IMG/VR virus record: IMGVR_UViG_3300044712_001205 | Coordinates: 4,534-68,533 of that record | DNA from: a virus | Direction: 5' to 3' (one strand) | Length of the DNA stretch: 64,000 nucleotides | Made by a program: the position numbers and the translations under genes | Notes under the pieces: model-generated | Databases searched by the model: none | Told to the model about the DNA's origin: nothing | What the model saw: only the letters and a program-made list of their open reading frames with translations | Shown here: positions 9,682 to 63,088 of the stretch, in pieces | Layout of the letters: every line of letters starts with the position of its first letter | Position numbering within the stretch: position 1 is the stretch's first letter

Positions 9682-10623
9682 TTATTTCTCTACTATTTTG
9701 GCCAATGTCTGGCCTCCGCGTAGGCTGTAGATTTTGCCCGGCTTTTGGAATTCTAACCAGGCCACATCGCCGGTGCCTCGGTAGCGTTCGGTTAGATCAA
9801 ACCCTGCGGTTTCGGCAGCACGTATGACCATGTTGCCCGGTGTAAAGCACATGAAGTTCTTTTCGGCCAGTGCAACACCATGTGCAAAGTTACAGTCGTT
9901 GTAGGTCATAAACACTACACCACCATTGCGAACTTTGACAAACAGTTCTCGAAAATATTGTTCGATAACTTCCATGGGTTTGAAATTGAACCAGTTGTAT
10001 GCAAACACATAACCAAACTGGTTGTTGGGCAAGTCTTTCAATATGGCTTGATTGCCGTTGCGATCATCCACGGCATATTGGCGAAGTCTGCGTTGATACT
10101 GCGGATGAAATCCCGACACCGCAGGCTGCAACAATTCAAGATTGTTGTCCACAAGATACAGTGGATCCAGCGGTACCAAGTGTTCGATCCATTTTTCACG
10201 GCCAGGTCTAAAACACAACCCAGGTAGGCGCCAATCGGTATAGCGCAAGATTCTACCCAACAACAGTTCTTCAGCTTCCGAGTCAATGCTCAACTTTCGA
10301 TTCAAAATATAATCGTTGGTTTCGTAAATGCTTTCGTGATTGAACCACCTTGTGCTTTCCCTAAACATGTCGGGATACCGCTCTTCAATCAGCACATCCA
10401 AATGCAGTTTGATTTCTTTGACTGTGGATCCAAACTTGATAAAAGCAGCATCAATGCCCGCAGCATCTTGTCCAATTTCTCTGCTGAACTGTTTGAACTG
10501 TAGGCCGTGATTCACAATCTGATGCATCACTGCATTGATCTGCTGTCGTGACTGATGGTGAATATCCTCTAGCGAATATTCCTCCAGCAAGTTTCTGTAA
10601 TCAACCAAGTCGCTGAGTTTCAT
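9682..10623 (-). CDS. Protein with a C-terminal SAM-methyltransferase-like domain
   Basis: LPNNQFGYVFAYNWFNF...VRNGGVVFMTY resembles class I MTase motifs. Confidence 0.55.
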   Translation of the reverse strand: MKLSDLVDYRNLLEEYSLEDIHHQSRQQINAVMHQIVNHGLQFKQFSREIGQDAAGIDAAFIKFGSTVKEIKLHLDVLIEERYPDMFRESTRWFNHESIYETNDYILNRKLSIDSEAEELLLGRILRYTDWRLPGLCFRPGREKWIEHLVPLDPLYLVDNNLELLQPAVSGFHPQYQRRLRQYAVDDRNGNQAILKDLPNNQFGYVFAYNWFNFKPMEVIEQYFRELFVKVRNGGVVFMTYNDCNFAHGVALAEKNFMCFTPGNMVIRAAETAGFDLTERYRGTGDVAWLEFQKPGKIYSLRGGQTLAKIVEK

Positions 10624-13280
10624 GAGAAGCTGAACAGTGAAGTGAATGTGTTTTCAGTGTTGGTAGCAGCACCTAGATCCCAGTCCAATACGCCCAATAG
10701 GTTGTCAATCTTACCGTCTACAACAGTGGCTTCCATTTCGCCGTCATCAAACGGCAGCTCTGTAAACCAAGTGGGCAGTCGCTGTTCATCTGTGGGATAA
10801 CCAATAGACGTCCAGCCCAAGGGATTAGATTTGAGCTTGCACACAATGGTCTTCATGCCGTCCACAATGGCCATCGAGTAGTTGTCCGAGTTCATCTTGC
10901 GCATGCTGTTCCAATTCAATGCAGCACGAACGTGTCCGGGCATGTTGGCTTTGCCTTGTTCGGCTTCCTTTTTCCCGTACATGGTCAAGTTGTTCACACG
11001 CTTGGGCGAACCTTTTTCCCATGCTGGACGCTCTTTGAACGCAATCTTGAACTCGCGAATCTTTTCCACAATTTCATCGCGACCAGATCCTGTTAGCACA
11101 TCTTTCAGGATATCGCTTAGGAAGTCTTGAATGACCTTGGGTGTGTCCGAACGTTTGAGATCCAAACCCATGGCCTTGACCTTGCCAGGCTTGCCGTCTA
11201 CATCCACACGCTTGCCTTCTTTGTCAATGATCATCACAGCATAACGCTTCTTGGTAATGAACAGGCCTTTTGATGCCACAACTTCTCGACCGCCCCGGAT
11301 AACTGCGCCCATGTCTCTGGGACAATGAAACGCTTGCTCCATAAAGCCCGGAAAGCTTTCGTTGACTTGTTCAGCAATTGAGTCATACAGCTGGATACAA
11401 ATTTCTTTGGACCACTGCATGCGACCTTGTTCTACTTCCTTTTGCAGCACAGGCCACGCAGAGAAGTAACACGAGTCTGTGTCACCGTAGATGATAGTTT
11501 CGCCTATGTGATCATACACACCAGTTATGCACTCATTGACATAGGCATCCATGTGCTTGGCAATGCTTCGTCCTGTGAGGGTAGTGGATTGGCCAATTCG
11601 CTTATCAAAAAACCTACAGCCAGGATTAAGAATAGCGCCATACAAGCTGTTAAGGTTAATCTTTTTAACCAGCTGGCGTTTGTCCCAGTATTCTTCATCT
11701 TCTTTGATTTCGCACTCTTTGAGTTTGGCCTGCATCTGTTTGCGTTCTGCATACCAGCGTTTGAGCAAGCCCGGAATCACTGCTTCACGTTCAAATGTAA
11801 AGATAGTACCATTGGCACTCAGTGTCCAAGGCTGATTTGAATCAAAGATCATTGACCAAATTTCAGCACCAGACATCACAGTTTCTTCACCATTGGCCCA
11901 ATCCACAGTGATTTGCATGCCACGTTGCTGTTCCATCACAGCAGTGTATTCCAGTGTGGCAAACAATCCTTCCCAGGCAGCAGCAAAGCTCTGTCCCGAA
12001 GCCATGCGCTCACGAATCAGTCGATCTGTGGCTGTGGGTCGCAGTTGTCCCACAATGGTCTCGGGTCCCATGTTCAGCGCACGAATGGTACTGGGATATA
12101 GACTGTTGATGTCAATGCTTCCGATGTATTCGTGCATGCCTTTCTTGGGATAAGCAACATACGCACCTGCTGCCTGGGTGTCCTCGCTGTCTACCCGTTC
12201 TTTGCGATTGGGCACAACCATGCCACGCTCGTGGGCTTCGTTGATAATGGCCTGCTCAGTCACTGCCACAGCACCCATGGTGGTTTGCAGCAACACAGTG
12301 TTTTCGTGTGCCAGTGTGTTGGCTAGATCCAGGAACTTGAGCTTTTTGTCCAACTTGGCCAGCAGTGCAGTATCCTGCCTGTTGTATTCAATGAACTTCT
12401 TAAAGTGTTGGTTGTACAGTTGATCCAGTGTGCCTTCGAACTGTGTTTTGCGCTCGTCCAGCTCGTATTCGCCAATGGCATCCAAGCTGTAGCTGTGACG
12501 TTCTTCATATGTGTACTTGCGATACAGTTGCATATAGTCCATATGCACACGACCAATCAAGTCATATGTTTCTTGTTCAGCACCAAAACGCTCAAACATG
12601 CGCTTCTTGGGCAGTTGTCCCCACAGACAAAACTTGCGAGTATCGTCTTTTGACAGCACTCTGGTACAGCGGTTCACGGTGTAGGGAATGTCATAGCCCT
12701 CACTGTTCCAGCCCGACAGTACGTCTGCATCGTCAATGAGATCAAGAAATGTTTTGATCATTTCTTCTTCGCGCTCGAACAGTATGGTATTGTCAAACTC
12801 CGACACCAGTTCTTGTGCAGTGTCCCAACTGAGATGTTTGGGTGGCACAGCCAGCGTGACCAACTGATCCAGCCAATCCAAGTACACCGAGATAGCAGTG
12901 ATTGGGTTGAATGGATCATGCACAGGCGAGAAGCCACGTTCAGAATCAAACGCTACTTCAATGTCGAAAAATGCTGTGTGCAGTTTTGGAGCATCTTGCC
13001 CTTTGTAGTTTTCTTCAAAGCAACGAAATACTGGATTGATATCCGACTCGTAGATCTGTCGGCCACTTTGAATCCTAAGTTCTTTGCGGAACTCTTTGTT
13101 GTTGCGGCTGCTGAATCTACTGACCGGATTGCCATATATGCTGCGAAACTTACCACGAGGATCGTCGTAGTAAAAAACATACTGGGCAGGGTACTCTTGG
13201 TATCGTCGTTCGCCATCACGGCGTTCGACAACATGAATGCGATCGTGTTCACGATCAAATAGTGCGTCTACGTAACTCAA
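10620..13280 (-). CDS. Family B DNA polymerase with 3'-5' exonuclease
   Basis: FFDIEV, GWNSEGYD, SIDINSLYPS, KINLNSLYG, YGDTDS, KKRYA; TTG start. Confidence 0.97.
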   Translation of the reverse strand: MSYVDALFDREHDRIHVVERRDGERRYQEYPAQYVFYYDDPRGKFRSIYGNPVSRFSSRNNKEFRKELRIQSGRQIYESDINPVFRCFEENYKGQDAPKLHTAFFDIEVAFDSERGFSPVHDPFNPITAISVYLDWLDQLVTLAVPPKHLSWDTAQELVSEFDNTILFEREEEMIKTFLDLIDDADVLSGWNSEGYDIPYTVNRCTRVLSKDDTRKFCLWGQLPKKRMFERFGAEQETYDLIGRVHMDYMQLYRKYTYEERHSYSLDAIGEYELDERKTQFEGTLDQLYNQHFKKFIEYNRQDTALLAKLDKKLKFLDLANTLAHENTVLLQTTMGAVAVTEQAIINEAHERGMVVPNRKERVDSEDTQAAGAYVAYPKKGMHEYIGSIDINSLYPSTIRALNMGPETIVGQLRPTATDRLIRERMASGQSFAAAWEGLFATLEYTAVMEQQRGMQITVDWANGEETVMSGAEIWSMIFDSNQPWTLSANGTIFTFEREAVIPGLLKRWYAERKQMQAKLKECEIKEDEEYWDKRQLVKKINLNSLYGAILNPGCRFFDKRIGQSTTLTGRSIAKHMDAYVNECITGVYDHIGETIIYGDTDSCYFSAWPVLQKEVEQGRMQWSKEICIQLYDSIAEQVNESFPGFMEQAFHCPRDMGAVIRGGREVVASKGLFITKKRYAVMIIDKEGKRVDVDGKPGKVKAMGLDLKRSDTPKVIQDFLSDILKDVLTGSGRDEIVEKIREFKIAFKERPAWEKGSPKRVNNLTMYGKKEAEQGKANMPGHVRAALNWNSMRKMNSDNYSMAIVDGMKTIVCKLKSNPLGWTSIGYPTDEQRLPTWFTELPFDDGEMEATVVDGKIDNLLGVLDWDLGAATNTENTFTSLFSFS

Positions 13281-13355
13281 TTTTTCTCCACTTGTGGCTG
13301 GACAGCCGTTCTACATGCTCGTAACGTGAGCGACTCGGTACTGACGCAGTACTTA
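13281..13355 (-). promoter_or_regulatory. Structured 5' leader of the DNA polymerase gene
   Basis: Inverted repeats GTACTG/CAGTAC (13338-13352), GCTC/GAGC (13317-13331), GGCTG/CAGCC (13296-13307); CCAC/GTGG overlaps the GGAG RBS. Confidence 0.5.
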
Positions 13356-13613
13356 TAGAGTTTTGCCAACGGTTTCAAGAATTGTTTCAAGGATTTCGTG
13401 GTCTTGCTTTTCTTTGCCAAATTCGGCTTTGTGTGCTAGCTTGATAGCTTTCTTGAGAATAGCAGGTTTGATTTCCAGTTCTTCAGCCACGGCTTTGATA
13501 GTGTCATTGAGGCCACCTTGCAGTGTTTCAATTTCGTGCATCACTGCCATGCCTTCGTTGATGATTTGGTTCAACTTGATTTTTTGTTCGCCGTTGAAAG
13601 ATTTGTCGCTCAT
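13353..13613 (-). CDS. DsbA/GapR-like small dsDNA-binding protein
   Basis: 86 aa helical protein, ..LNDTIKAVAEELEIKPAILKKAIKLAHK pattern. Confidence 0.6.
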   Translation of the reverse strand: MSDKSFNGEQKIKLNQIINEGMAVMHEIETLQGGLNDTIKAVAEELEIKPAILKKAIKLAHKAEFGKEKQDHEILETILETVGKTL

Positions 13614-13618
13614 AGAGA

Positions 13619-13662
13619 ATCTCCTAAAATGCTAGTATACACAGCACTTTAGGAGATGTCAA
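13619..13662 (-). promoter_or_regulatory. Near-consensus sigma70 promoter inside a 15-bp inverted repeat that covers the RBS
   Basis: TTGACA-17-TATACT; ATCTCCTAAAATGCT (13619-13633) / AGCACTTTAGGAGAT (13643-13657). Confidence 0.75.
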
Positions 13663-13669
13663 AGATTAT

Positions 13670-13759
13670 TTGCTCACTTTCGAGATCAGGTAGCGAATCC
13701 GAACTCTGAGGCAGCAGCCGCCCACACACCGTAAACGGTAACGGTCCTAAGGTGTGTTC
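13670..13759 (-). ncRNA. Candidate ncRNA made of segments complementary to conserved 23S/16S rRNA
   Basis: Plus strand carries AGGTAGCGAA, GAGGCAGCAGCCGC, GTAAACGG and TAACGGTCCTAAGGT; stem ACACACC/GGTGTGT. Confidence 0.55.
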
Positions 13760-14725
13760 TTACTTGGTGCGGCCTTCTGCCACACCCTGATCTCTTACTG
13801 GACGCACACTGAGCCCACGACCGCTTTTGCCAATGGCTTCTAACCAATCATCGGCTTTGACAAAAGCATCCATTATGTCGTTGGCTTCGAAAGGATGATA
13901 CACTCGTTTCATTGTGCGGAGATCGTAGATTTCAAATTCTCCGGGTTCTTGGCCCGAACCTTCCGCTACACCTTGCTTTTGCTGTTGTAACTCTTTTAAT
14001 CTGGCTTGTAGTTCTTTGATTTTCTTATCATGTGTACCAGCAGTATTCCAATCTTTTAATTGTAGAATTCTGTCTTTGATGCGCTTGATTTGCGAATCTA
14101 CATTTACGCCTTCCGCCACACCTTGATCAAATTCTTGCAAGGCCATATCAAGGAAGTCACTCAACGCCTCCGAGTCCATAGTCTTGGAAAAGACACTCAT
14201 TTTATTACCACTAAGACCACATTCAACATGTTGGCCTTCAGATTGTGCAAGTTTCTTCAATGCTGACATTACTGAACGATATTCTTCTTTTCCGCTAACT
14301 TCAGTGTCTACACGACCTTTATATCCACGTGGCACAAAAGTCTTTGTGCGTTCAAATTCTGCATTGGCATTTGCGGCACTTAGGGCAGGAGCAATGAATG
14401 CTTCCGCCACACCTTGCTCCATGGTGTCTCTGCGACCTGCTGCCCATGTAGAGTAGTCATCACTGTATTCAGTGCTGGGGTCGCGCAGCCGAGGTGCTGG
14501 CTGTGACTTGACAGCAGGATACATGTCAGGATTGGCTGCACGATGGCGCTTGGTATATCCTGCAATGCCTTTATCACGTTTTAGTTCTGTACGGCGAGCA
14601 GCAGCTTTTTCTTCTGGACTCTTGCCAAAAGTTCTTTGTGTAGCTTGTGCTTGACTGCGACTACGCTCTGCTGCACGTAGGTAATCAGGGTTGGCACTGA
14701 CTTCAAATAATTCATTCAACAGCAT
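13760..14725 (-). CDS. Modular putative head-internal protein with four QGVAE linkers
   Basis: N-terminus MLLNELFE; QGVAEA once and QGVAEG three times. Confidence 0.75.
   Translation of the reverse strand: MLLNELFEVSANPDYLRAAERSRSQAQATQRTFGKSPEEKAAARRTELKRDKGIAGYTKRHRAANPDMYPAVKSQPAPRLRDPSTEYSDDYSTWAAGRRDTMEQGVAEAFIAPALSAANANAEFERTKTFVPRGYKGRVDTEVSGKEEYRSVMSALKKLAQSEGQHVECGLSGNKMSVFSKTMDSEALSDFLDMALQEFDQGVAEGVNVDSQIKRIKDRILQLKDWNTAGTHDKKIKELQARLKELQQQKQGVAEGSGQEPGEFEIYDLRTMKRVYHPFEANDIMDAFVKADDWLEAIGKSGRGLSVRPVRDQGVAEGRTK
13773..14416 (-). repeat. Four copies of a 17-bp in-frame repeat, consensus CAAGGTGTGGCGGAAGG
   Basis: Copies at 13773, 13959, 14109 and 14400; spacings 186, 150 and 291 nt, all multiples of 3. 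Confidence 0.85.
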
Positions 14726-14726
14726 T

Positions 14727-15470
14727 TCAGCGTTCCTCTATGTAATCTTGACCGCGGTCTTGACGTTCCCAACGATTCTTAAACAGGTCCATGGCCATTC
14801 GGGCATGATCTGCTTTGGGGAAACGACTGGGCATGGTGCGACCTTGACGGCGTACTTCAAATCCACGACCTTCATCGCCCCAGCATTCTAAACATGAACC
14901 GTCACTCATTTCCACAGTGAACACCGGACCTGCTGACTCAGGCAACACAGGATCTTGCACAGGAGCAGGCGGCGGCGTGACCATGGTGTCTTGTTCTGTG
15001 GGATCTTCTGTGACTTCTTCGGCTTCAGCCTGACCTTTTTGCACAGCACTCACAGCTTTGTCAACAAGGTCACGATCAATCTTGACTTTCTTTTCTAGTC
15101 GATCTAGATCAGGTGTACCTTTTTCACGCTGACCATCGTCGGCCATTTTCTTTTCTAATTTGTCTAAGTAGCTGTTGAGATCAGCTTTGACCTTGCCCAG
15201 CATGTCTTCTTCAACGCTGACCATGGCTTCTTCTAAGGCAGATTTTTTGTGTTCCACACTTTCGTCAGCACCCACAGCATAGCCCTTCATGGGATGTTGT
15301 GGGTCTGTTTTGGCACCCAGTGCTGTGATCTTTTTGGGCTTGAACAGTGCAGGCAACTGTGGCACTGATTTTTGCTGTGGGTTCAAACCACCCTTGACTG
15401 AAGTAGGAGTGGTCTTGCCTTCTTCAATGGCGGTGATACGCTGTAGTATATCACGAATGTCTGCGGTCAT
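14727..15470 (-). CDS. Hypothetical, probably head-associated protein
   Basis: MTADIRDILQRITAIEE leader; acidic x-x-E sites. Confidence 0.7.
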   Translation of the reverse strand: MTADIRDILQRITAIEEGKTTPTSVKGGLNPQQKSVPQLPALFKPKKITALGAKTDPQHPMKGYAVGADESVEHKKSALEEAMVSVEEDMLGKVKADLNSYLDKLEKKMADDGQREKGTPDLDRLEKKVKIDRDLVDKAVSAVQKGQAEAEEVTEDPTEQDTMVTPPPAPVQDPVLPESAGPVFTVEMSDGSCLECWGDEGRGFEVRRQGRTMPSRFPKADHARMAMDLFKNRWERQDRGQDYIEER

Positions 15471-15910
15471 GCTCTAGAGTCTTTCAAGAAACTTCTCAAC
15501 ATCCAACGGTGCTTGCCCATGGCATCAATGCGACCTGCAAGGAAATCACAAATGCCTTGTTGGTCTTCGGCTTCGGCTGCATCAAAAGTTTGGTTCAGCA
15601 GTGCAATCACTTGTTCTGCATCAGCAAACAGTTCTTCGATCATGAGTCGAGCACGTGGGATTTTGGTCTGTCCTGTGATAAGGCTGAGTTCGGCAAAACG
15701 CTCAAAACTGCCAGGTGTGTAGTCGTCTAGTATTCTAATAAATTCTGCGGTTTGGTCTATGCTGTTTTCATAGACTTCTTCATAGATATTGCCAAAAAAT
15801 TCGTGTAGTTGGGCAAAGTCTGGGCCTTCTACGTTCCAATGAAAAAGCTGTGCCTTGATCACAAAGGCATATTGTGTGGCCAACAGTGTTTTTAAATCAT
15901 CAACTAGCAC
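15467..15910 (-). CDS. dps: Dps ferritin-like DNA protection protein
   Basis: HWNVEGPDFAQLHEFF, D..AE.IR, KHRWML; GTG start. Confidence 0.92.
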   Translation of the reverse strand: MLVDDLKTLLATQYAFVIKAQLFHWNVEGPDFAQLHEFFGNIYEEVYENSIDQTAEFIRILDDYTPGSFERFAELSLITGQTKIPRARLMIEELFADAEQVIALLNQTFDAAEAEDQQGICDFLAGRIDAMGKHRWMLRSFLKDSRA

Positions 15911-21715: not shown

Positions 21716-23185
21716 TTATTTAGATTGTGGAGGGTTAACCGGTACAGTTTTGTACACACGTTTCACAGGATCCCACACAGTTTTACGAGGACCTTGTCCG
21801 GCTAACTGTTTGAGACGGCTCATGGCATCGTCAAAACGATCTGCATCCATATTGCCAACTTTGTTGCCCTCGCCTAGGTCTCGATCGTTGGAATAATCGC
21901 CCGAGTCATAATCTGATTTACGAGCACTCTTAAAGTATGCAAAGTCAGGGTCGTGGAATTTACCATCATTACCTAGGCTGCCGGTTTTGGGATCATCCCA
22001 TTCTTTGCGTTTTACTACGGTGCGGCCAGGAGTTGTTGTAACACTCACAGGGCCATTTGCACCTCTAAACTCGCGTTCGCTTTCGTCGACACCTTCTTTG
22101 GGCACACAGTTGGGAACCATGCGGTCACCTTTTTTCTTCATGCCTACTTGACGATGTGTGTCCCAACACTTTTCGTCTAGTTGTTCTTCAAATGTAGACA
22201 CAGGGGGAACTCTGGATGAAGTTTTACGCTTAGCCATTTCACGCTTGTATGCTTCTGGATCAGTCTGCTTTAGTTTTGCTAAACGCTGTTTTTCTTTTTC
22301 TATTTTAGCAATCATACGCTGTTCAACATCGCCGGCGTCGTCTTCCGCCACACCTTCTTTTTTAGTGAATACATTGTGACCAAATCTATCACCATATTGT
22401 TGTGTATTGATAGTGACAGTTCTGCCAGGATATGTCAAATATGAATTGTGGGCACGGCCCATAGCATCATACTTGTGACGGTATTCACCTGGGGTGCCGT
22501 GTGCTGTGATATACTTTTCAACTTCACTGTGATGTGCTTGTTCAAAATCGTTGTTGATGCCTTCCGCCACATCTTGCTCTTGACCTTGCACATCAGCAAT
22601 AGCACCGTTGGTAAGTTTAACCATCATAGGACCTTGTGGGCCAAACATACGCTTGAAGCCTGCCGTAGTCATACGACCAGCTTCTGTGCCGTCTCGGATA
22701 TCGCCAATGCGCTTGTCAGTGATAGCAATGGCACTACCACGTGGTAGTATTTTCTTACCATTAGCAGACTTCATTGATAGCAAGTCTTGTAGAATAGCAT
22801 CAGCGTTATCTAGTACAACCTGGCGTGCTTCTTCTGGACTGGTTGCCAGTACATAATAGTATCTACCGCTGTAATCACTGTACTTGCCGCGATAGTAGTT
22901 GTTCATGATAACAACTTGCCACGACTTCAAACCTTTTAACGCATTAAATGTTGTCTCTGGGCTTGCCTCTGCTACACCTTCAGACTTGTTGCCCCAGTTG
23001 GCAGCACCTTTTTTACGGCACTGAACCAAGGCACCCGACGCATAAGCCGATGGCCATACTTTGTAGCGACTGCGAACCTTGTGATAGCAAGCATCTTTCT
23101 TTTCTGCCAACAACAAGTCGCTGAAAGCAGGGCCGCCACACTCAGGACAGGTTTGCGGTGATTCAAATAAGTCGTCTACAATCAT
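21716..23185 (-). CDS. Modular putative head-internal polyprotein (GVAE linkers, Cys-pair micro-domains)
   Basis: MIVDDLFE leader; EGVAEA, QDVAEG, EGVAED and EGVDES linkers. Confidence 0.75.
   Translation of the reverse strand: MIVDDLFESPQTCPECGGPAFSDLLLAEKKDACYHKVRSRYKVWPSAYASGALVQCRKKGAANWGNKSEGVAEASPETTFNALKGLKSWQVVIMNNYYRGKYSDYSGRYYYVLATSPEEARQVVLDNADAILQDLLSMKSANGKKILPRGSAIAITDKRIGDIRDGTEAGRMTTAGFKRMFGPQGPMMVKLTNGAIADVQGQEQDVAEGINNDFEQAHHSEVEKYITAHGTPGEYRHKYDAMGRAHNSYLTYPGRTVTINTQQYGDRFGHNVFTKKEGVAEDDAGDVEQRMIAKIEKEKQRLAKLKQTDPEAYKREMAKRKTSSRVPPVSTFEEQLDEKCWDTHRQVGMKKKGDRMVPNCVPKEGVDESEREFRGANGPVSVTTTPGRTVVKRKEWDDPKTGSLGNDGKFHDPDFAYFKSARKSDYDSGDYSNDRDLGEGNKVGNMDADRFDDAMSRLKQLAGQGPRKTVWDPVKRVYKTVPVNPPQSK
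22080..22981 (-). repeat. Further copies of the 17-bp GVAE repeat
   Basis: Copies at 22341, 22560 and 22965, degenerate copy at 22080; spacings 261, 219 and 405 nt. Confidence 0.75.
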
Positions 23186-51287: not shown

Positions 51288-52805
51288 TTAACTCCAGTTA
51301 CCCACAGATGTCACAGAGCTATTGCCCACAGGAATCAAACGGAAATAACTGTTGCGAACAATAGTAGGTGCGCCGCCTGGGGCAGCACTGAACTGAATCT
51401 GCGGAATCAACGTACCAGCAGCATTGGTTCTAATTGTGCCCTTGAGTAGCACAGTAATATTTTCAGTTGCCGATGTGGATGCAGCGGTCACTGTCAATGC
51501 ACCAACACCTGTACCGTAAATTCGACTCACAGCACCCAACACGTTTCCGGTTGTGGATGTGGTTTCTGCAAGATACGTAATGCTGGTAAATGTAGCAGTA
51601 CCACCGAACAGCGTGGCCAGTGTGTGACTGGTTGTACCAGCAGAACGTGCAATGTAATACACAGCTTCAAACATGTAGGTAGTTGACCCCAACAGGGTGA
51701 TTGCTCCCGAAGCAGTTGCATTGAATACTTGCTGTGCTGAAGAACTGTTGGATGCAACATAATCTGAACTTTGAACAATGAAATATTCACTGGGCAATAT
51801 TCCTCGCTGGCTTGCAGCAACAGAACTGTAAATAGATGTTCCATCGTACTCGATTGCGCCAGATGCAGGAGTTACCAACAAACTGCCAGCGGTTAGTCTT
51901 ATGGGCGCATTGGTAGTAGTACCGGCTGAGGGTCTGCTGAAGCCGTTGATGTTGACGCCTACAACGTTGCCTGTTGTGCTAATAGTACCAGCAGTGGAAA
52001 TGTTACCTCCGCTGATGTTGCCTGTGGCTGTCACAGTGCCAGCAGTGGAAATGTTACCTCCGCTGATGTTGCCTGTGGACACAACTCTGCCGCCAGTGAT
52101 CAAATTGCCGCCTGTAACATTTCCTGCTGCACTTACAAAACCAGTGGCAGTGATGTCATCGGTTTGAATATCTGCGCTGACAAAGTTGGTCAACGCACGG
52201 TTTAGGTCAAACACAGTGATAGTAACACCAGCATCATAACTGCCAAATGCAAACTCATAGATGCCTGTGGCACCAAACGTAATCGTGCCTGTGTAGGCAT
52301 TGGTGGCCACGTATCCTTGAATACCTTGTGTGCCCAACAGTTGGCCAGTAGTAGGCGCTTTGATTGTGATGGTATGGGAAATGTCAGTGATGTTGATCTG
52401 TACTTTTACATAACCATAGTTTGCAACCAAGCCGTTCAGCGTAGGGAAATTTGAAAATTCAATTGTGGTAGGAGCGTTGGTTGTAAATGTCTGATAATGC
52501 CCTAACGCATAGTTCACTGTGGCAGTGAGAGGACTACCAGTGGGGCTGATCTGCACACGTGGTGCTGCAAAGTCTCTAATGGCCGCGGCGTAGATCAAAT
52601 TGTCGTTCATGTTGTTGTCAAGAACGCCACCGATCAGTGCGGCTTTTAGCAATGCTTTGCTTTGCAAGTCGTTGATTTCGTCTTCGGCGTATTGAAAGTT
52701 GGTTTTGATGTTGGTAAAATTGTCGCGAAAGCCTTGACTGTTGTTGTCTTGACCTGCAACTGGATATGCGCCGTCGATGTTGTTTGGGTTAATATTACTT
52801 GACAT
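51288..52805 (-). CDS. Virion tail/baseplate-associated protein
   Basis: N-terminal YPVAGQDNNSQGFRDNF; GN-rich 17-aa repeats. Confidence 0.75.
   Translation of the reverse strand: MSSNINPNNIDGAYPVAGQDNNSQGFRDNFTNIKTNFQYAEDEINDLQSKALLKAALIGGVLDNNMNDNLIYAAAIRDFAAPRVQISPTGSPLTATVNYALGHYQTFTTNAPTTIEFSNFPTLNGLVANYGYVKVQINITDISHTITIKAPTTGQLLGTQGIQGYVATNAYTGTITFGATGIYEFAFGSYDAGVTITVFDLNRALTNFVSADIQTDDITATGFVSAAGNVTGGNLITGGRVVSTGNISGGNISTAGTVTATGNISGGNISTAGTISTTGNVVGVNINGFSRPSAGTTTNAPIRLTAGSLLVTPASGAIEYDGTSIYSSVAASQRGILPSEYFIVQSSDYVASNSSSAQQVFNATASGAITLLGSTTYMFEAVYYIARSAGTTSHTLATLFGGTATFTSITYLAETTSTTGNVLGAVSRIYGTGVGALTVTAASTSATENITVLLKGTIRTNAAGTLIPQIQFSAAPGGAPTIVRNSYFRLIPVGNSSVTSVGNWS
51988..52078. 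repeat. Exact 40-bp duplication with a 51-bp period
   Basis: CCAGCAGTGGAAATGTTACCTCCGCTGATGTTGCCTGTGG at 51988 and 52039. Confidence 0.85.
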
Positions 52806-58121: not shown

Positions 58122-60973
58122 TATACGTTATCCCAAGCTGATCCGGTCCATAGTCTCAAACCACCAAATACTGTGCTGTAGTATATCTGTCCTGCAACTG
58201 GACTGCCTGGATCTGATGCCGACACAGGTATAATCATTCTTGATGTAGCCTGTACGTTGCCTGCTGTGACGTTGGCACCAGTGATGCTGCCAGTGGCAGT
58301 GATCAAACCTGCTGTAACAATGTTAGCACCAGTGACGTTGCCTGAACCAGAAATTGTTGTACCAGTAATAGCAGTACCACTGATAGCAGCACCAGTGATT
58401 GCTCCTGCAGCACTAACTTGACCAGCTGTGGTCAAGTTTCCGCCTGTAATGTTGGCAGTTGCAGATACAATGCCTGCGGTATTGATGTTGCCACCTGTGA
58501 TATTTCCTGTGGCAGAGATTACCCCACCTGTAGAAATATTAGAACCCAACAGCCAGTTACCGGTGATGTTTCCAGACGCAGTAATTAGTCCAGCAGTGCT
58601 TATGTTACCACCTGCAATGTTGCCAGTGGCCGATACCAATCCGCCAGTATTGATGTTGCCGCCAGTAACGTTGCCTGTAGCGGAGATTAGACCGCCGGCA
58701 AATATGTTGCCACCAATGCCTACGCCACCTGCCACTCGCAACGCACCTGTAACAGTTGATGTAGAACCAGCAGAGTTCTTGACGTTGGCTAACGTAGTTA
58801 CTTCAAGTGTAGCGATGTTGGCTATACCGGTGGTGTCTATATTGCCACCTGTGATATTACCTGTGACATTTATTGCGCCAGCAGTTTCAAAGTTTGCTGC
58901 AATGATGTTTCCTATTGCGCTTACCACACCCGACGCATACACGCCAGCGCCAGTGTTAATATTGCCACCTGTGATATTTCCAGTAGCACTTACAATGCCA
59001 GCAGTGTAGAACGCACCAGCATACACATTGCCACCAATGCCAGCACCGCCTGCTACACGCAATGCACCTGTGGTAGTTGAACTAGCAGCAGTGGATGATT
59101 TAACGTTGGCCAGAGTAACGACTTCAATAGTAGCAACGTTGGCAGTACCAGCAGTAGTTAAATTACCGCCGATCACATTGCCAGTTGCACTGACAATGTT
59201 TCCAGTGTTGATATTACCACCTATTACATTTCCTGCGGCACTGACAATACCAGCTTCTAAGTTACCAATCACCAGGTTACCATAAGCGTTGACCAAATTT
59301 ACAATGTCACTGCTGATAGTAACATCAGTGGCAATGACCATTTTTCCAAGACTGTTGTCATATCCAATAAATGCAGATTTTTCGCTGCCACTTGCATAAT
59401 ACCAAAGTTGTTCGCCGCGATCTTTGCCATCATTGGAAGTCAGTGGAGAGTTGTTTGGGCCACGTCCTAGACCAATAATTGGATCTTCGACTTCCAGTGT
59501 GCCAACATTGGTATACACAAGATCGCCATCGACTATGAGGTTTCCAGTAATCAGCGCAGATCCTGCTTGAATAGCACCAGCAGTTACCAAGTTTCCACCA
59601 GTAACGTTGCCACTGGTTGTTACTTGTCCGGTAGTTACAAGATTGCCACCAACTACATTGCCCGAAGCACTGATGTTTGTCCCAGTCACTGTGGTTGCAG
59701 ATACCAAACTTGCATTAACGTTGCTAGTAGTCGAAATAATCCCAAGGCTAATAATGTTGCCGCCTCTGATATTGCCAGTGGCACTGACTATGCCAGCAGT
59801 TTCAATATTGCCGCCACGAACATTGCCAGCAGCAGAAACTTCGGTTCCTGTTATTAAACTGCCTGATGCACTAACAATCCCCACGGCAATCAAGTTGCCA
59901 CCGAGAACATTTCCTGTAGCCGTTACTAGACCAGCGGTGTTGATGTTGCCTCCAGTGATGTTACCAGAAGCAGTGATTACAGCAGTGGATATCTGTGTAG
60001 TAACTGAAAGATTATTTGCTGCTGCATTGCCCACAGCAGAAACATTGCCACCTACAATGTCACCTGTGGCAGTAATTGTCGCTGAATCAACCTTGCCAGC
60101 AGTGACCAAGTTTGCACCAGTGATGTTTCCTGTGGCTATTACTTGATCTTGTGTTGATAAATTGTTGGCCGTGATGTTGCCTGAACCGCCCAATGCATTA
60201 CTTACAACCAGGTTACTCAGTGTGCCCACTGTTTGCAGGCTTGAATTAACTACGTTGGCACTGAGTGTAGAACCTGTGAGCAGTGCAGCGTTTGAACTTA
60301 CACTAATGCCTGTTAACAAGCTTCCGTTGCCGATGAAATAGTTACCAGATACGTTGCCCACGGCTGTGATTGACCCGCCAATGTTGGCATCACCGGCAGT
60401 GACAAGATTGCCACCTGTGACATTACCGGCAGCACTGACAGCAGCACCGGCATTGAAGTTGGAACCTTGCACTGTGCCCGAAGTACTGATGGTTCCGCTG
60501 GTGGTTAAATTACCACCTACAATGTTACCCGACGCGGTGAGACTAGTAAGTGTGCCCACAGAAGTCAAGCTTGAGTTTGTGACGTTGGAACTTAGAGTAT
60601 TGCCAATCAGCAACGCTGCATTGGCCTGGCTTACAACACCAGTTAGCTGGCTTCCGTTACCAATGAAAAATCCTCCAGCAGTGACGTTGCCTGTGGCGCT
60701 GACCGCAGAGTTTGCGATCAATGTACCTTTGACTGTGGCTCCTGTTGCAGTGACCACAATCACGTTGCTGGTAATACCGCTGGACATAGTAATTGCACCG
60801 TCCACAACCGGTATAGATACGTTGGAAACACCGTTTGCGATACCCGAAACACCGCCAGCAATTTCTAAAACTGCAAAGTTTTCGTTGATAATTTCAAAAG
60901 CATCCCGTAACGGATCACCTGTGCCATCGTTGGCTGTGTTTCCCACATTGATTTGTTGTAGCGAAATGGTCAT
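58121..60973 (-). CDS. Tail-fibre-like protein with gp9/gp10-type N-terminus and many 17-aa GN repeats
   Basis: INVGNTANDGTGDPLRDAF..INENF; (S/T)ATGNI.GGNI.TAG repeats. Confidence 0.75.
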   Translation of the reverse strand: MTISLQQINVGNTANDGTGDPLRDAFEIINENFAVLEIAGGVSGIANGVSNVSIPVVDGAITMSSGITSNVIVVTATGATVKGTLIANSAVSATGNVTAGGFFIGNGSQLTGVVSQANAALLIGNTLSSNVTNSSLTSVGTLTSLTASGNIVGGNLTTSGTISTSGTVQGSNFNAGAAVSAAGNVTGGNLVTAGDANIGGSITAVGNVSGNYFIGNGSLLTGISVSSNAALLTGSTLSANVVNSSLQTVGTLSNLVVSNALGGSGNITANNLSTQDQVIATGNITGANLVTAGKVDSATITATGDIVGGNVSAVGNAAANNLSVTTQISTAVITASGNITGGNINTAGLVTATGNVLGGNLIAVGIVSASGSLITGTEVSAAGNVRGGNIETAGIVSATGNIRGGNIISLGIISTTSNVNASLVSATTVTGTNISASGNVVGGNLVTTGQVTTSGNVTGGNLVTAGAIQAGSALITGNLIVDGDLVYTNVGTLEVEDPIIGLGRGPNNSPLTSNDGKDRGEQLWYYASGSEKSAFIGYDNSLGKMVIATDVTISSDIVNLVNAYGNLVIGNLEAGIVSAAGNVIGGNINTGNIVSATGNVIGGNLTTAGTANVATIEVVTLANVKSSTAASSTTTGALRVAGGAGIGGNVYAGAFYTAGIVSATGNITGGNINTGAGVYASGVVSAIGNIIAANFETAGAINVTGNITGGNIDTTGIANIATLEVTTLANVKNSAGSTSTVTGALRVAGGVGIGGNIFAGGLISATGNVTGGNINTGGLVSATGNIAGGNISTAGLITASGNITGNWLLGSNISTGGVISATGNITGGNINTAGIVSATANITGGNLTTAGQVSAAGAITGAAISGTAITGTTISGSGNVTGANIVTAGLITATGSITGANVTAGNVQATSRMIIPVSASDPGSPVAGQIYYSTVFGGLRLWTGSAWDNV

Positions 60974-61042: not shown

Positions 61043-63088
61043 ATGAGTTACATCATCAATAACAGCAGAGGGCAAGTGGTTGCGGTTGTAGCAGACGGCA
61101 CAATCAATACCAGTGCCACAGATTTAGCCCTAGTTGGGCGCGGTGTGTCTGGCTACGGTACCAGCGAAAACGAAAACTATGTGTTTTTGTTGGAAAATTT
61201 TGCCAATAACACAGCACCACTACAACCAATTTTAGGACAGCTTTGGTACAATTCGGCCACAGACGTGCTGTCTGTTTACAACAGTGCCAACGCTTGGCAA
61301 GCACTGGCCACACAAGCCAACATTGAAGCTGCAAAAATTAGCCCTGTGTTTACTGGGGTGCCTACTGCTCCTACTGCCGCCACAGGCACAGCTACTACAC
61401 AGCTGGCAACCACAGCTTTTGTTACCAATAGCCCGCAATTTGCAGGTGCTCCAAAAGCTCCTACTGCTGCTGCTGGCACAGCCAACACTCAAATAGCCAC
61501 CACTGCTTTTGTAACCAACAGTCCACAATTTGCAGGAACACCAACAGCGCCCACAGCCGCAGCTGGCACAAATACCACACAAATTGCTACCACTGCATTT
61601 GTTACAGCAGGACCTCAGTTTGCAGGCATACCCACTGCTCCGTCAGCAGCAAACACTGACAACAGCACACAACTTGCTACCACAGCTTTTGTTCAAGCTC
61701 AGAAAACAAGTCCAGCATTGTCCGGCGTGCCAACTGCTCCTACTGCGGCAGCTGGCACAAATACCACACAAATTGCTACCACAGCTTTTGTACAAAACGA
61801 AAAGGTCAGTCCTGCATTCTCAGGAACTCCTACTGCGCCCAATGCATTGCCAGGTACCAACACTGATCAAATTGCCACTACTGCATTTGTGGTTAGCACA
61901 GTCACAGGCGGCACCAGCATTCTGGGAACCATGGCACAACAAGCAGCCAATGCTGTGTCTATCACAGGTGGAACAATCACAGGATTATCTGCACCCATAG
62001 ATGTGGCATCAGGCGGCACGGGAGGCAGTACTGCTGCTCAAGCACGCAGTTCTTTGGGGCTCGGTTCTATATCTACACAAAACGCTGACGCAGTTGCTAT
62101 CAGCGGAGGCACAATTACTGGTATTGCCCCTCTCCCTATCACTTCAGGTGGTACCGGGGGGAATACCGCAGCAGACGCAAGAACCAATCTAGGGCTAGGC
62201 TCAATGGCAGTTCAACCTGCTACTGCGGTAAACATCACTGGGGGATCAATTTCAGGTATCACTCCATTACCGTTGGCATCAGGCGGTACCGGTGCTGCTG
62301 ATGCAGGTAGTGCCCGAAGTGCGCTAGGCCTAGGATCAATGTCTACGCAAAGCTCTACCACAGTTAATATCACAGGCGGAACTATAAACAACGTTCAAAT
62401 TGATGCATTGTCACAGCCATTGCCTGTTACAGCCGGAGGCACAGGAGGATCCAGTGCGTTTGCTGCAAGAACCAATCTGGGCCTAGGATCATTGGCCACA
62501 CAAAATCTCAGTGATGTCAACATCACTGGCGGTTCTATCACAGGTATTGATCCGCTGCCACTTTCATCTGGCGGAACAGGCGGTAACGATGCATCATCTG
62601 CTAGACTGAATTTAGGCTTGGGTACAATGGCGTTGCAAAGCGCCAGCAACGTGCTCATCACTGGTGGCAACATACAATCGTTGTCAAATCCTCTTGGCAT
62701 AGCACAAGGGGGCACAGGTGCTACATCTGCGGCTGCTGCACGAGCAGCACTGGGCATAGCATCAGGCGGAACAACTGACGTAGGTACCATAGCAACTCAA
62801 AATGCCAACGCTGTGACCATTACTGGTGGTTCTATTACTGGCATTACCCCACTGGCAGTATCAGCTGGTGGTACTGGGTCAGGGAATCCCTCTGGCGCAA
62901 GAGCAGCGTTGGGTGCTGCTGCTGAGACTATAACTATCACAGGTACTGGTGGATTGACTGGCGGTGGTGATTTGTCTACATCAAGAGTTATTAGTATTGC
63001 TTCAAATTCCAATGGATTTGGAACAAGAACAGTTTCCACTGGTTCTCCTTCTGGCGGCAGCAACGGTGACATTTGGTATCAAGTCTAA
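61043..63088 (+). CDS. Tail fibre protein
   Basis: LLENFAN...GQLWY N-terminus; PTAPTAAAGTNTTQIATTAFV and GGTG....AR..LGLG repeats; GDIWYQV end. Confidence 0.8.
   Translation: MSYIINNSRGQVVAVVADGTINTSATDLALVGRGVSGYGTSENENYVFLLENFANNTAPLQPILGQLWYNSATDVLSVYNSANAWQALATQANIEAAKISPVFTGVPTAPTAATGTATTQLATTAFVTNSPQFAGAPKAPTAAAGTANTQIATTAFVTNSPQFAGTPTAPTAAAGTNTTQIATTAFVTAGPQFAGIPTAPSAANTDNSTQLATTAFVQAQKTSPALSGVPTAPTAAAGTNTTQIATTAFVQNEKVSPAFSGTPTAPNALPGTNTDQIATTAFVVSTVTGGTSILGTMAQQAANAVSITGGTITGLSAPIDVASGGTGGSTAAQARSSLGLGSISTQNADAVAISGGTITGIAPLPITSGGTGGNTAADARTNLGLGSMAVQPATAVNITGGSISGITPLPLASGGTGAADAGSARSALGLGSMSTQSSTTVNITGGTINNVQIDALSQPLPVTAGGTGGSSAFAARTNLGLGSLATQNLSDVNITGGSITGIDPLPLSSGGTGGNDASSARLNLGLGTMALQSASNVLITGGNIQSLSNPLGIAQGGTGATSAAAARAALGIASGGTTDVGTIATQNANAVTITGGSITGITPLAVSAGGTGSGNPSGARAALGAAAETITITGTGGLTGGGDLSTSRVISIASNSNGFGTRTVSTGSPSGGSNGDIWYQV
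61559..61782 (+). repeat. Exact 35-bp duplication within tail-fibre repeats
   Basis: GCAGCTGGCACAAATACCACACAAATTGCTACCAC at 61559 and 61748. Confidence 0.8.

Follow-up and report, generated by a model that had tools for sequence, protein, structure and literature searches.

The ORF-free gap between two minus-strand genes of the window (the whole stretch of viral DNA analysed here, 64,000 nucleotides of an IMG/VR record) encodes one member of an uncatalogued family of RNAs, 75-100 nt in length, that is found in giant freshwater phages. The functional strand is the minus strand of the window, which is also the strand of the flanking genes. Two loops of this folded RNA, L1 (CCUUAGGACCG) and L3 (UUCGCUACC), are exactly antisense to the contiguous positions 1920-1930 and 1929-1937 of 23S rRNA. 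Pairing of the RNA with host 23S rRNA at 1920-1937 through L1 and L3 would best explain this arrangement and, judging from sequence comparison, we give it roughly even chances.

A conserved structured RNA in giant phages

The 86-aa protein encoded downstream of the gap has at least 595 relatives in IMG/VR, and the regions upstream of their genes revealed a common element, whose parts in the window are listed in Table 1. A covariance model built from 19 simple copies (R1) found exactly one copy, on the gene-sense strand in all cases, in 65 of 82 related IMG/VR loci located through the 86-aa protein, one of these 65 copies being cut at the edge of its locus; no second copy was found in the 64-kb window at E values up to 1. 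A second model (R2) matched 100 of 100 sources, which were drawn mostly from a motif-pattern scan of IMG/VR and comprise the window, 98 new loci from that scan, and Pseudomonas phage PA5oct. The scan returned at least 120 stretches, and 136 distinct cores were obtained in total. An earlier note, made from the window sequence alone, had proposed a small structured RNA in the gap that would lose credit if related phages carried no homologues; the copies detected in 65 of 82 related loci, together with their covarying helices, bear this proposal out.

Table 1. The RNA element, its parts, and the neighbouring features in the window
Feature	Position	Strand	Remarks
ORF-free gap	13614-13759		Flanked by two minus-strand ORFs
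Upstream 321-aa ORF	13760-14725	minus	
UAA stop codon of the 321-aa ORF	13760-13762	minus	1 nt ahead of the RNA element
Downstream 86-aa gene	13353-13613	minus	phrog_12534; phrog_639 'transcriptional regulator'; syntenic neighbour
Family-B DNA polymerase gene	10620-13280		After the 86-aa gene
Sigma-70-type promoter TTGACA-17-TATACT	13634-13662	minus	Serves the 86-aa gene; outside the RNA element; 11/12 consensus positions
Whole RNA element, 88 nt	13671-13758	minus	End-to-end covariance-model match: R1 62 bits, E 6e-17; R2 74.2 bits, E 1.9e-19
Helix P1	13724-13757	minus	Core ACAC 13757-13754 with GUGU 13727-13724, extendable to 7 bp; encloses L1 and optional hairpin P1a
Loop L1, CCUUAGGACCG	13742-13752	minus	Exact complement of 23S 1920-1930; extended in the window copy to 1917-1931 (13739-13753)
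Optional hairpin P1a (CCGU...ACGG)	13729-13744	minus	Inserted in L1; carries GTAAACGG; present in MFE fold
Hairpin P2 (GGGC(G)/(U)GCCU) with loop L2 (GGCUGCU)	13709-13723	minus	Plus strand reads GAGGCAGCAGCCGC
GCU of L2	13716-13718	minus	5' half of the pseudoknot
Helix P3	13681-13708	minus	13708-13699 with 13690-13681; small internal loop; capped by L3
Loop L3, AUUCGCUACC	13689-13698	minus	Final 9 nt exactly complementary to 23S 1929-1937; window match of 10 nt, 1928-1937 (13688-13697)
3' tail, AAAGUGAGCA	13671-13680	minus	AGC 13674-13672 pairs with L2 as a pseudoknot

The family proved to be absent from the catalogues searched. Rfam 15 gave no match at gathering level across the whole window, and a search of positions 13300-14100 at E values up to 10 returned five sub-threshold matches, of which the best overlapping the element was ar9 (16.4 bits against a gathering threshold of 45); no known family thus accounts for the motifs, an outcome that the earlier note had named as one that would explain them away. 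No published description of the RNA was found in the literature searched. With blastn, positions 13000-14400 had no match among 50,697 phage records, and the element alone gave a single match of 22 nt (E = 3) to the tail-fibre gene of Cronobacter phage CR5, taken as chance. ARAGORN detected no tRNA or tmRNA gene in the window.

The helices are supported by extensive covariation. In an alignment of 66 rows, 50 of them distinct, two-sided changes occur at 16 of 19 pairs, and 89.8% of the cells are paired; shuffling lowers this share to 66.1%, and displacing the partners by 1-3 columns lowers it to 23-49%. An alignment of 100 rows (A5, 97 distinct rows) gave similar values, with two-sided changes at 21 of 23 pairs and 85.9% of cells paired against 63.7% after shuffling. 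Within A5, all four pairs of P1 vary on both sides (92% of cells paired), as do all five of P2, a hairpin of 4-5 bp (100% of cells paired), and all ten of P3, a stem of 8-10 bp across the family that shows many pair types and one internal-loop position that is often unpaired. The self-folding that had been noticed in the single sequence is recovered here, since ACACACC/GGUGUGU corresponds to helix P1 and GAGUUCGG/CUGAUCUC to helix P3, both covarying in the relatives. The hairpin P1a occurs only in part of the family and is variable in sequence between members; in those that bear it, the first 2-3 nt of L1 are able to pair within P1. The single-sequence fold of the window copy is no stabler than shuffled sequences (z = -0.11), and thermodynamics alone would therefore not have flagged the element.

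The same alignments indicate the active strand. Read on the minus strand, the modelled pairs include 50 G-U/U-G against 19 A-C/C-A combinations (one invariant G-U was left aside), and 13 of these 19 fall at a single internal-loop position that is not helical. It is therefore only as gene-sense RNA, from the minus strand of the window, that the helices hold up. This count agrees with the earlier note in its view of a minus-strand transcript antisense to 23S rRNA, here to positions 1920-1937, and speaks against the alternative that it had offered, namely, an rRNA decoy expressed from the plus strand.

In addition to the three helices, the RNA contains a pseudoknot of 3 bp between GCU of L2 and AGC of the tail. 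Among the 97 distinct rows, pair 54-119 is G-C in all 97, pair 55-118 is C-G in 89, G-C in 8 and never unpaired, and pair 56-117 is U-A in 95 and U-G in 2. A C-to-G change at the fourth base of the L2 word CGGCUGCUG occurs in 10 of 136 distinct cores, all of which carry the tail GACC; this tail is found in none of the other 126, which have GAGC. The central base of L2 is also variable, with 17 U and 5 A variants among the 136 distinct cores. On the plus strand, this region had been likened to the 16S primer regions 341F and 515F (530 loop). The 10-nt 16S match is kept in 36 of 49 members of the protein-anchored set and broken in 32 of 136 distinct cores; since L2 moreover sits in the covarying pseudoknot, its resemblance to 16S rRNA is best seen as a by-product of structure, and the proposed relation to the 530 loop falls away. 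A pairing of the L3 loop UUCGCU with AGUGAG of the tail, also suggested from the single sequence, is possible in 95.5% of cells, but none of its six pairs changes on both sides, and the first pair is unpaired in 11 rows, including those in which the G-to-C change of the tail is compensated in L2. This pairing was rejected and the L2-tail pseudoknot preferred; tail AGUG may still pair weakly and partially with L3 CGCU, or the RNA may switch between both pairings.

The genomic position of the element is highly regular. It begins at or a few nucleotides from the stop codon of the upstream gene, although the ORFs that precede it fall, judged by their C-termini, into at least eight unrelated types. 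The CCUUAGG motif of L1 follows the end of a long ORF by 3-14 nt in 91 of 131 distinct contexts. All copies share the orientation of the surrounding genes, and an A/U-rich stretch follows the tail. Among the 98 loci found by motif pattern, 77 have a homologue of the 86-aa gene downstream on the same strand and 71 the polymerase gene, while a Dps-like gene lies upstream of the element in 31. The start of the 86-aa gene is 55-78 nt from the element in 23 of these 98 loci and otherwise 0.5-11 kb away, and the gene was not found in 21. In the window, it has its own promoter and its own Shine-Dalgarno sequence; across the family, a promoter scoring at least 10/12 is present within 70 nt after the element in 43 of 131 distinct contexts.

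Of 131 distinct copies, only 3 have a terminator-like site in the 90 nt that follow, and no such site, in particular no U-tract terminator, was found within 13614-13759 of the window; an intrinsic terminator was rejected on these counts. A complete genome of 364 kb contains one copy of the element and a complete genome of 352 kb two, the second with a degenerate L1. Promoter-early stem-loop cassettes of the T4 type are present in many near-identical copies per genome, between early genes. With one or two copies per complete genome of about 350 kb and one in the 64-kb window, a repeated regulatory cassette of this type was also rejected. The low copy number, the synteny, and the presence of a terminator at 3 of 131 copies therefore describe a syntenic RNA gene that lacks its own promoter, and not a cassette or a terminator. 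Directly behind a stop codon, 1 nt away in the window, the element has the location of a 3'-UTR-derived base-pairing sRNA.

We also searched for the RNA in cultured phages and in bacteria. The nearest polymerases from cultured phages are those of Sinorhizobium phage Phosso, Agrobacterium phage Atu_ph07, Vibrio phage 2.275.O, and Rak2-type phages, with 42-52% identity. R1 (with stricter filters) and R2 found no copy in Phosso, Atu_ph07, and 2.275.O, nor did R1 alone, with stricter filters, in Serratia phage BF or Escherichia phage PBECO4, results that leave absence unproven. Pseudomonas phage PA5oct (MK797984) carries a divergent copy at 115472-115561 (24.4 bits, E 7e-5) with L1 and L3 intact. 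This copy begins at the EST35_0189 stop codon, and a separate hairpin and U-tract terminator comes after it, near 115600 (gap 115474-115609). Eleven PA5oct-type records share this copy at 99-100% identity. The four ncRNAs reported in the PA5oct omics paper (PMC7318152) lie at other coordinates, and none of them is this RNA. In one genome each of 185,579 bacterial species, the motif pattern was found only in two phage-like contigs (one Haliscomenobacter MAG), which marks it as specific to phages. Both MAG contigs carry the phage polymerase, 86-aa, Dps, and 247-aa genes and are therefore read as binned phage DNA, giving a weak host lead at best.

Complementarity of two loops to 23S rRNA

The earlier note had drawn attention to the gap because of a cluster of rRNA words on its plus strand. 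All of these strings are present on that strand inside the ORF-free gap, and comparison with the E. coli K-12 rrnH operon (rrlH, rrsH) confirmed that their rRNA matches are exact. The longest, TAACGGTCCTAAGGT (13739-13753), equals 23S 1917-1931 over 15 nt, AGGTAGCGAA (13688-13697) equals 23S 1928-1937 over 10 nt, and GTAAACGG (13731-13738) equals 23S 1897-1904 over 8 nt. Within GAGGCAGCAGCCGC (13708-13721), positions 13708-13717 correspond to 16S 348-357 (10 nt) and positions 13712-13721 exactly to 16S 519-528 (10 nt). Composition-aware arithmetic for an 88-nt stretch against the rRNAs predicts, per orientation, 5.9 chance matches at a length of 8 nt, 0.36 at 10 nt, 0.09 at 11 nt, and 0.0003 at 15 nt; taken singly, the 8-mer and the two 16S 10-mers are therefore unremarkable. 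Across a 64-kb window, a 15-mer match to rRNA is expected about 0.5 times by our arithmetic, in line with the remark in the earlier note that one 15-mer alone could be chance. The 15-mer of the window is itself an 11-nt family match, lengthened by chance through the hairpin sequence of this copy. Three segments had been assigned to one 23S locus, and the 15-mer and the abutting 10-mer do stand beyond chance; the third, GTAAACGG, is neither beyond chance expectation nor conserved. It was rejected as a conserved feature, as it sits in the optional hairpin P1a, whose sequence differs among members.

Across the family, the columns of L1 are invariant and those of L3 invariant or nearly so (52 aligned copies). 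Complementarity to 23S 1920-1930 or longer was found for L1 in at least 44 of 49 distinct members, and to 23S 1929/1930-1937 for L3 in 48 of 49. Matches of at least 8 nt to rRNA numbered 339 in the antisense orientation, compared with 200 ± 14 (maximum 242) in shuffles and 191 in the sense orientation. The single L1 variant seen, A to G at two loci (L005 and L006), still pairs with U1923 as G-U. No intramolecular partner covaries with L1 or L3, and the tail varies at one position (G to A) without a change in L3; the tail therefore does not hold L3 constant. The family alignments accordingly display the pattern that the earlier note had proposed to look for, covarying stems around 23S-like segments that do not change.

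The probability that two given loops, one of 11 nt and one of 9 nt, would match abutting stretches of rRNA in one orientation is about 1.3e-7, a value that by our estimate stays small even when some ten thousand RNA families are allowed for. If rRNA-directed antisense RNA is used as a working class, for which there is no established family, then complementarity above chance was found for 23S rRNA and not for 16S rRNA.

The stretch 23S 1920-1937 lies at the subunit interface, where we take it to comprise the 3' strand of helix 69 and the first part of helix 70. In the mature 50S subunit, it is base-paired and partly buried. The segments read by L1 and L3 overlap by 2 nt, and by 5 nt in the 6 of 49 members whose L1 match extends to 1933, so that L1 and L3 cannot both be fully paired at once. 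The order of the two loops is permuted relative to a simple antisense transcript. In the record from which the window was taken, an IMG/VR fragment about 20% complete, and in two complete genomes, the element itself is the sole place where the 10-nt complement of L1 is found, and none of these three records has a site for the 18-mer target within 3 mismatches. A phage-internal target for L1 was rejected on the evidence of these three records; the partner should therefore be host-encoded, and 23S rRNA is the sole candidate in view.

Candidate function and alternative explanations

We propose that the RNA would be made as the 3' part of an upstream early or middle transcript and that its pseudoknotted scaffold would hold out L1 and L3 for collinear pairing with the 23S stretch of the host. 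The likely substrate would be nascent or not-yet-folded 23S rRNA, or the free 50S subunit; nascent or assembling 23S rRNA is favoured because the target stretch is base-paired in the mature 50S subunit. Such pairing would disturb or redirect 50S maturation or subunit joining during infection. That a dedicated jumbo-phage RNA might grip the helix 69-70 strand by two loops and thereby control 50S assembly or subunit joining is put forward tentatively, as a reading that falls somewhat short of probable. According to a review (PMC7038079, citing Kulik et al. 2017), a synthetic PNA against helix 69 of 23S rRNA inhibits the growth of E. coli.

Some observations tell against pairing. One RNA per transcript would confront tens of thousands of ribosomes, and the 16S match of L2 proved to be structural, which means that rRNA-like words can arise in other ways here. 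Further points on this side are the base-paired and partly buried state of the target stretch in the mature 50S subunit, which would call for an unfolded or assembling substrate, the overlap of the two target segments, the permuted loop order, the ability of the first 2-3 nt of L1 to pair within P1 where P1a is present, and the ordinary stability of the single-sequence fold.

A role unrelated to rRNA is possible, if on balance unlikely. The structured RNA would then act as a self-cleaving ribozyme, as an element for processing or stability that sets the 3' end of the upstream message, or as a protein- or ligand-binding domain, its 23S complementarity being coincidental or a vestige, left over for example from the capture of antisense rDNA. 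Compact pseudoknotted folds with invariant unpaired bases are typical of ribozymes and aptamers, the element is always found at a gene end with the A/U-rich stretch after its tail, and the rRNA-like word of L2 did turn out to be structural. However, no Rfam ribozyme or riboswitch matched even at E values up to 10, and coincidence would have to produce two separate invariant loops matching adjoining rRNA positions, at a probability of about 1e-7. A vestige should drift over more than 130 distinct variants, whereas the two loops are the most conserved columns. Another reading, which we regard as improbable, is a translational device acting in cis, in which the 23S complementarity would catch the large subunit of the terminating ribosome and tether or recycle it for the next gene (termination-reinitiation). 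In 91 of 131 distinct contexts, 3-14 nt separate L1 from the stop codon of the upstream gene, and these genes are unrelated to one another; the target is at a subunit interface that is remodelled during ribosome recycling. Tight spacing is, however, normal in phage genomes and would be expected of a promoterless RNA close to its upstream gene; the next gene comes with a promoter and a Shine-Dalgarno sequence of its own and is 55-78 nt away in only 23 of 98 loci, and the known tethering elements pair with small-subunit rRNA, upstream of the stop codon.

We consider it very improbable that the plus strand is active as an rRNA mimic or decoy that would show 23S- and 16S-like loops to rRNA-binding proteins or rRNA-cleaving toxins. 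It is on the plus strand that the loops read as sense 23S words; yet the excess of G-U/U-G over A-C/C-A pairs (50 against 19, 13 of them non-helical) points to helices of the minus strand only, each copy found is oriented like the surrounding genes, and the 16S-like word is not conserved. Barely credible, finally, is a feature acting at the DNA level, such as a cassette for recombination, a terminator, or a site for protein binding, or else a cluster of rRNA-like words that arose by chance. The covariation of three helices and the pseudoknot argues against it, as do one or two copies per genome, which make no repeated cassette, and the gap without a U-tract terminator in a family with terminator-like sites after 3 of 131 distinct copies. 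What it could draw on is the unexceptional single-sequence fold (z = -0.11) and the expectation of about 0.5 rRNA matches of 15 nt per 64-kb window.

The family is new, pseudoknotted, and strikingly complementary to 23S rRNA; whether it is also a new kind of RNA would depend on the putative target. If pairing with 23S rRNA is true, it would make this RNA the first natural one, in bacteria or in their viruses, known to act in trans on large-subunit rRNA by base pairing, and it would give phages an RNA-RNA route to the ribosome via one of the most conserved sequences in biology. To our knowledge, no such RNA-RNA route has been described for bacteria or their viruses. It would also open the question of how giant phages control host translation or ribosome biogenesis and would mark out a site on 23S rRNA that nature has already validated as an antisense target. 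Since cultured Pseudomonas phages of the PA5oct type carry a divergent copy, the idea is open to bench experiments. Regardless of rRNA pairing, a widespread RNA family missing from Rfam has been found, with more than 130 distinct variants, a well-supported fold that includes a pseudoknot, and a fixed place in the replication module.

Comparison with known RNA systems

Several known systems share single traits with the phage RNA. Like CopA/CopT of plasmid R1 and RNA I/RNA II of ColE1, it is a folded scaffold that exposes short conserved loops complementary to a target, and recognition would thus begin with loop contacts. In those plasmid systems, the RNA comes from the strand opposite its own target gene and acts upon an mRNA or a primer, whereas the candidate partner of the phage RNA is a host rRNA encoded elsewhere, of which two loops would read one contiguous stretch. 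Two loops of one RNA facing collinear, adjoining target segments are also found in group II introns, where EBS2 and EBS1 recognize IBS2-IBS1. Unlike these, the phage RNA comes without an intron, a reverse-transcriptase/maturase gene, or splice sites; what it would pair with is rRNA, in two segments that share 2 nt.

Conserved antisense elements directed at conserved rRNA are a hallmark of the box C/D and H/ACA sRNAs and snoRNAs and of U3 in archaea and eukaryotes, and the known guides act in ribosome biogenesis. The invariant columns of the phage RNA, in contrast, are confined to the L1, L2, L3, and tail motifs and include no C/D or H/ACA boxes (a CUGA in the window lies in the variable P3 stem), and no gene for a partner protein of a guide-RNA-like system was identified. 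We know of no rRNA guide system of the box C/D or H/ACA type in bacteria or phages. With the 3'-UTR sRNAs CpxQ, SroC, and DapZ, the phage RNA shares a place directly after a stop codon, the lack of its own promoter, and a conserved single-stranded seed, and the PA5oct copy is in addition followed by an intrinsic terminator. It differs from them in that most copies, including that of the window, have no terminator, in that the putative target is rRNA and not mRNA, and in having two seeds and a pseudoknot.

The TURBS of caliciviruses are likewise viral RNA elements at a stop codon that are complementary to rRNA. They lie upstream of the stop codon and pair with small-subunit rRNA, and translation restarts a few nucleotides away; the phage RNA is located after the stop codon, its complementarity is to large-subunit rRNA, and between 55 nt and several kilobases separate it from the next start. 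The closest parallel in target is artificial. The helix 69 PNAs (Kulik et al. 2017, as cited in PMC7038079) are antisense to the same 23S region, and the growth inhibition ascribed to them there suggests that a complementary strand can reach it. The PNAs are man-made and strand-invading, whereas the phage RNA is natural and folded.

Structural variation within the RNA family

Part of the family, including the members at the IMG/VR loci L009, L018, L021 and L032, carries a small additional hairpin, GCCR-GNRAG-YGGC, just upstream of the element, the closing pair of which alternates between A-U and G-C. This hairpin overlaps the final codons of the upstream ORF and may represent an additional 5′ helix of the RNA. 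On the 3′ side of the Pseudomonas phage PA5oct element lie a GGAGAC...GUCUCC hairpin and a U-tract (locus L216, 1590-1620; about 115561-115600), likely an intrinsic terminator, which, if real, would provide the RNA with a discrete 3′ end. The complete 352-kb genome also harbors a degenerate second copy of the element (locus L208, 1490-1570; G002:C1:76950-77016; 34 bits), in which the P2 loop (L2), the 3′ tail that pairs with it and most of the P3 loop (L3) are retained and GGACC has disappeared from the P1 loop (L1).

Coding repeats in the window

Repeat analysis of the window combined with translation revealed an in-frame word, repeat family D15, shared by a 321-aa and a 489-aa ORF. The QGVAEG motif encoded by this word forms the end of the 321-aa protein, directly before the RNA element. 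Long coding-repeat arrays with 51-nt and 90-nt periods, together with a Gly-rich GGN repeat, were observed elsewhere in the window and probably correspond to fibre or collagen-like structural genes.

Features near the RNA element and coding repeats of the window
Feature	Positions	Strand	Evidence
86-aa gene	13353-13613	-	
321-aa ORF with D15 word	13760-14725	-	translation
D15 word (...QGVAEG...)	13767-13803, 14103-14139, 22554-22590	within minus-strand ORFs	repeat analysis, translation
Dps/ferritin-like gene	15467-15910	-	PF00210, E 1.5e-19
489-aa ORF with D15 word	21716-23185	-	translation
Coding-repeat arrays, GGN repeat	51949-52152, 58254-60538, 61323-61890, 63185-63999		

Gene neighbors of the RNA

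The Dps-like gene is a syntenic neighbor upstream of the RNA in 31 of the 98 loci found by motif pattern. Taken together, two contigs (L218 and L219) of a single Haliscomenobacter sp. MAG (Bacteroidota) contain the element along with the polymerase of the window phage (79% identity) and its 86-aa, Dps and 247-aa genes. Either these contigs are mis-binned phage DNA, or else they give a weak hint of the host. At least 595 IMG/VR proteins are related to the 86-aa protein, which matches phrog_12534 and phrog_639 ("transcriptional regulator"); its search against Pfam returned no matching family. By eye, the 86-aa protein appears to resemble small coiled-coil DNA-binding proteins.
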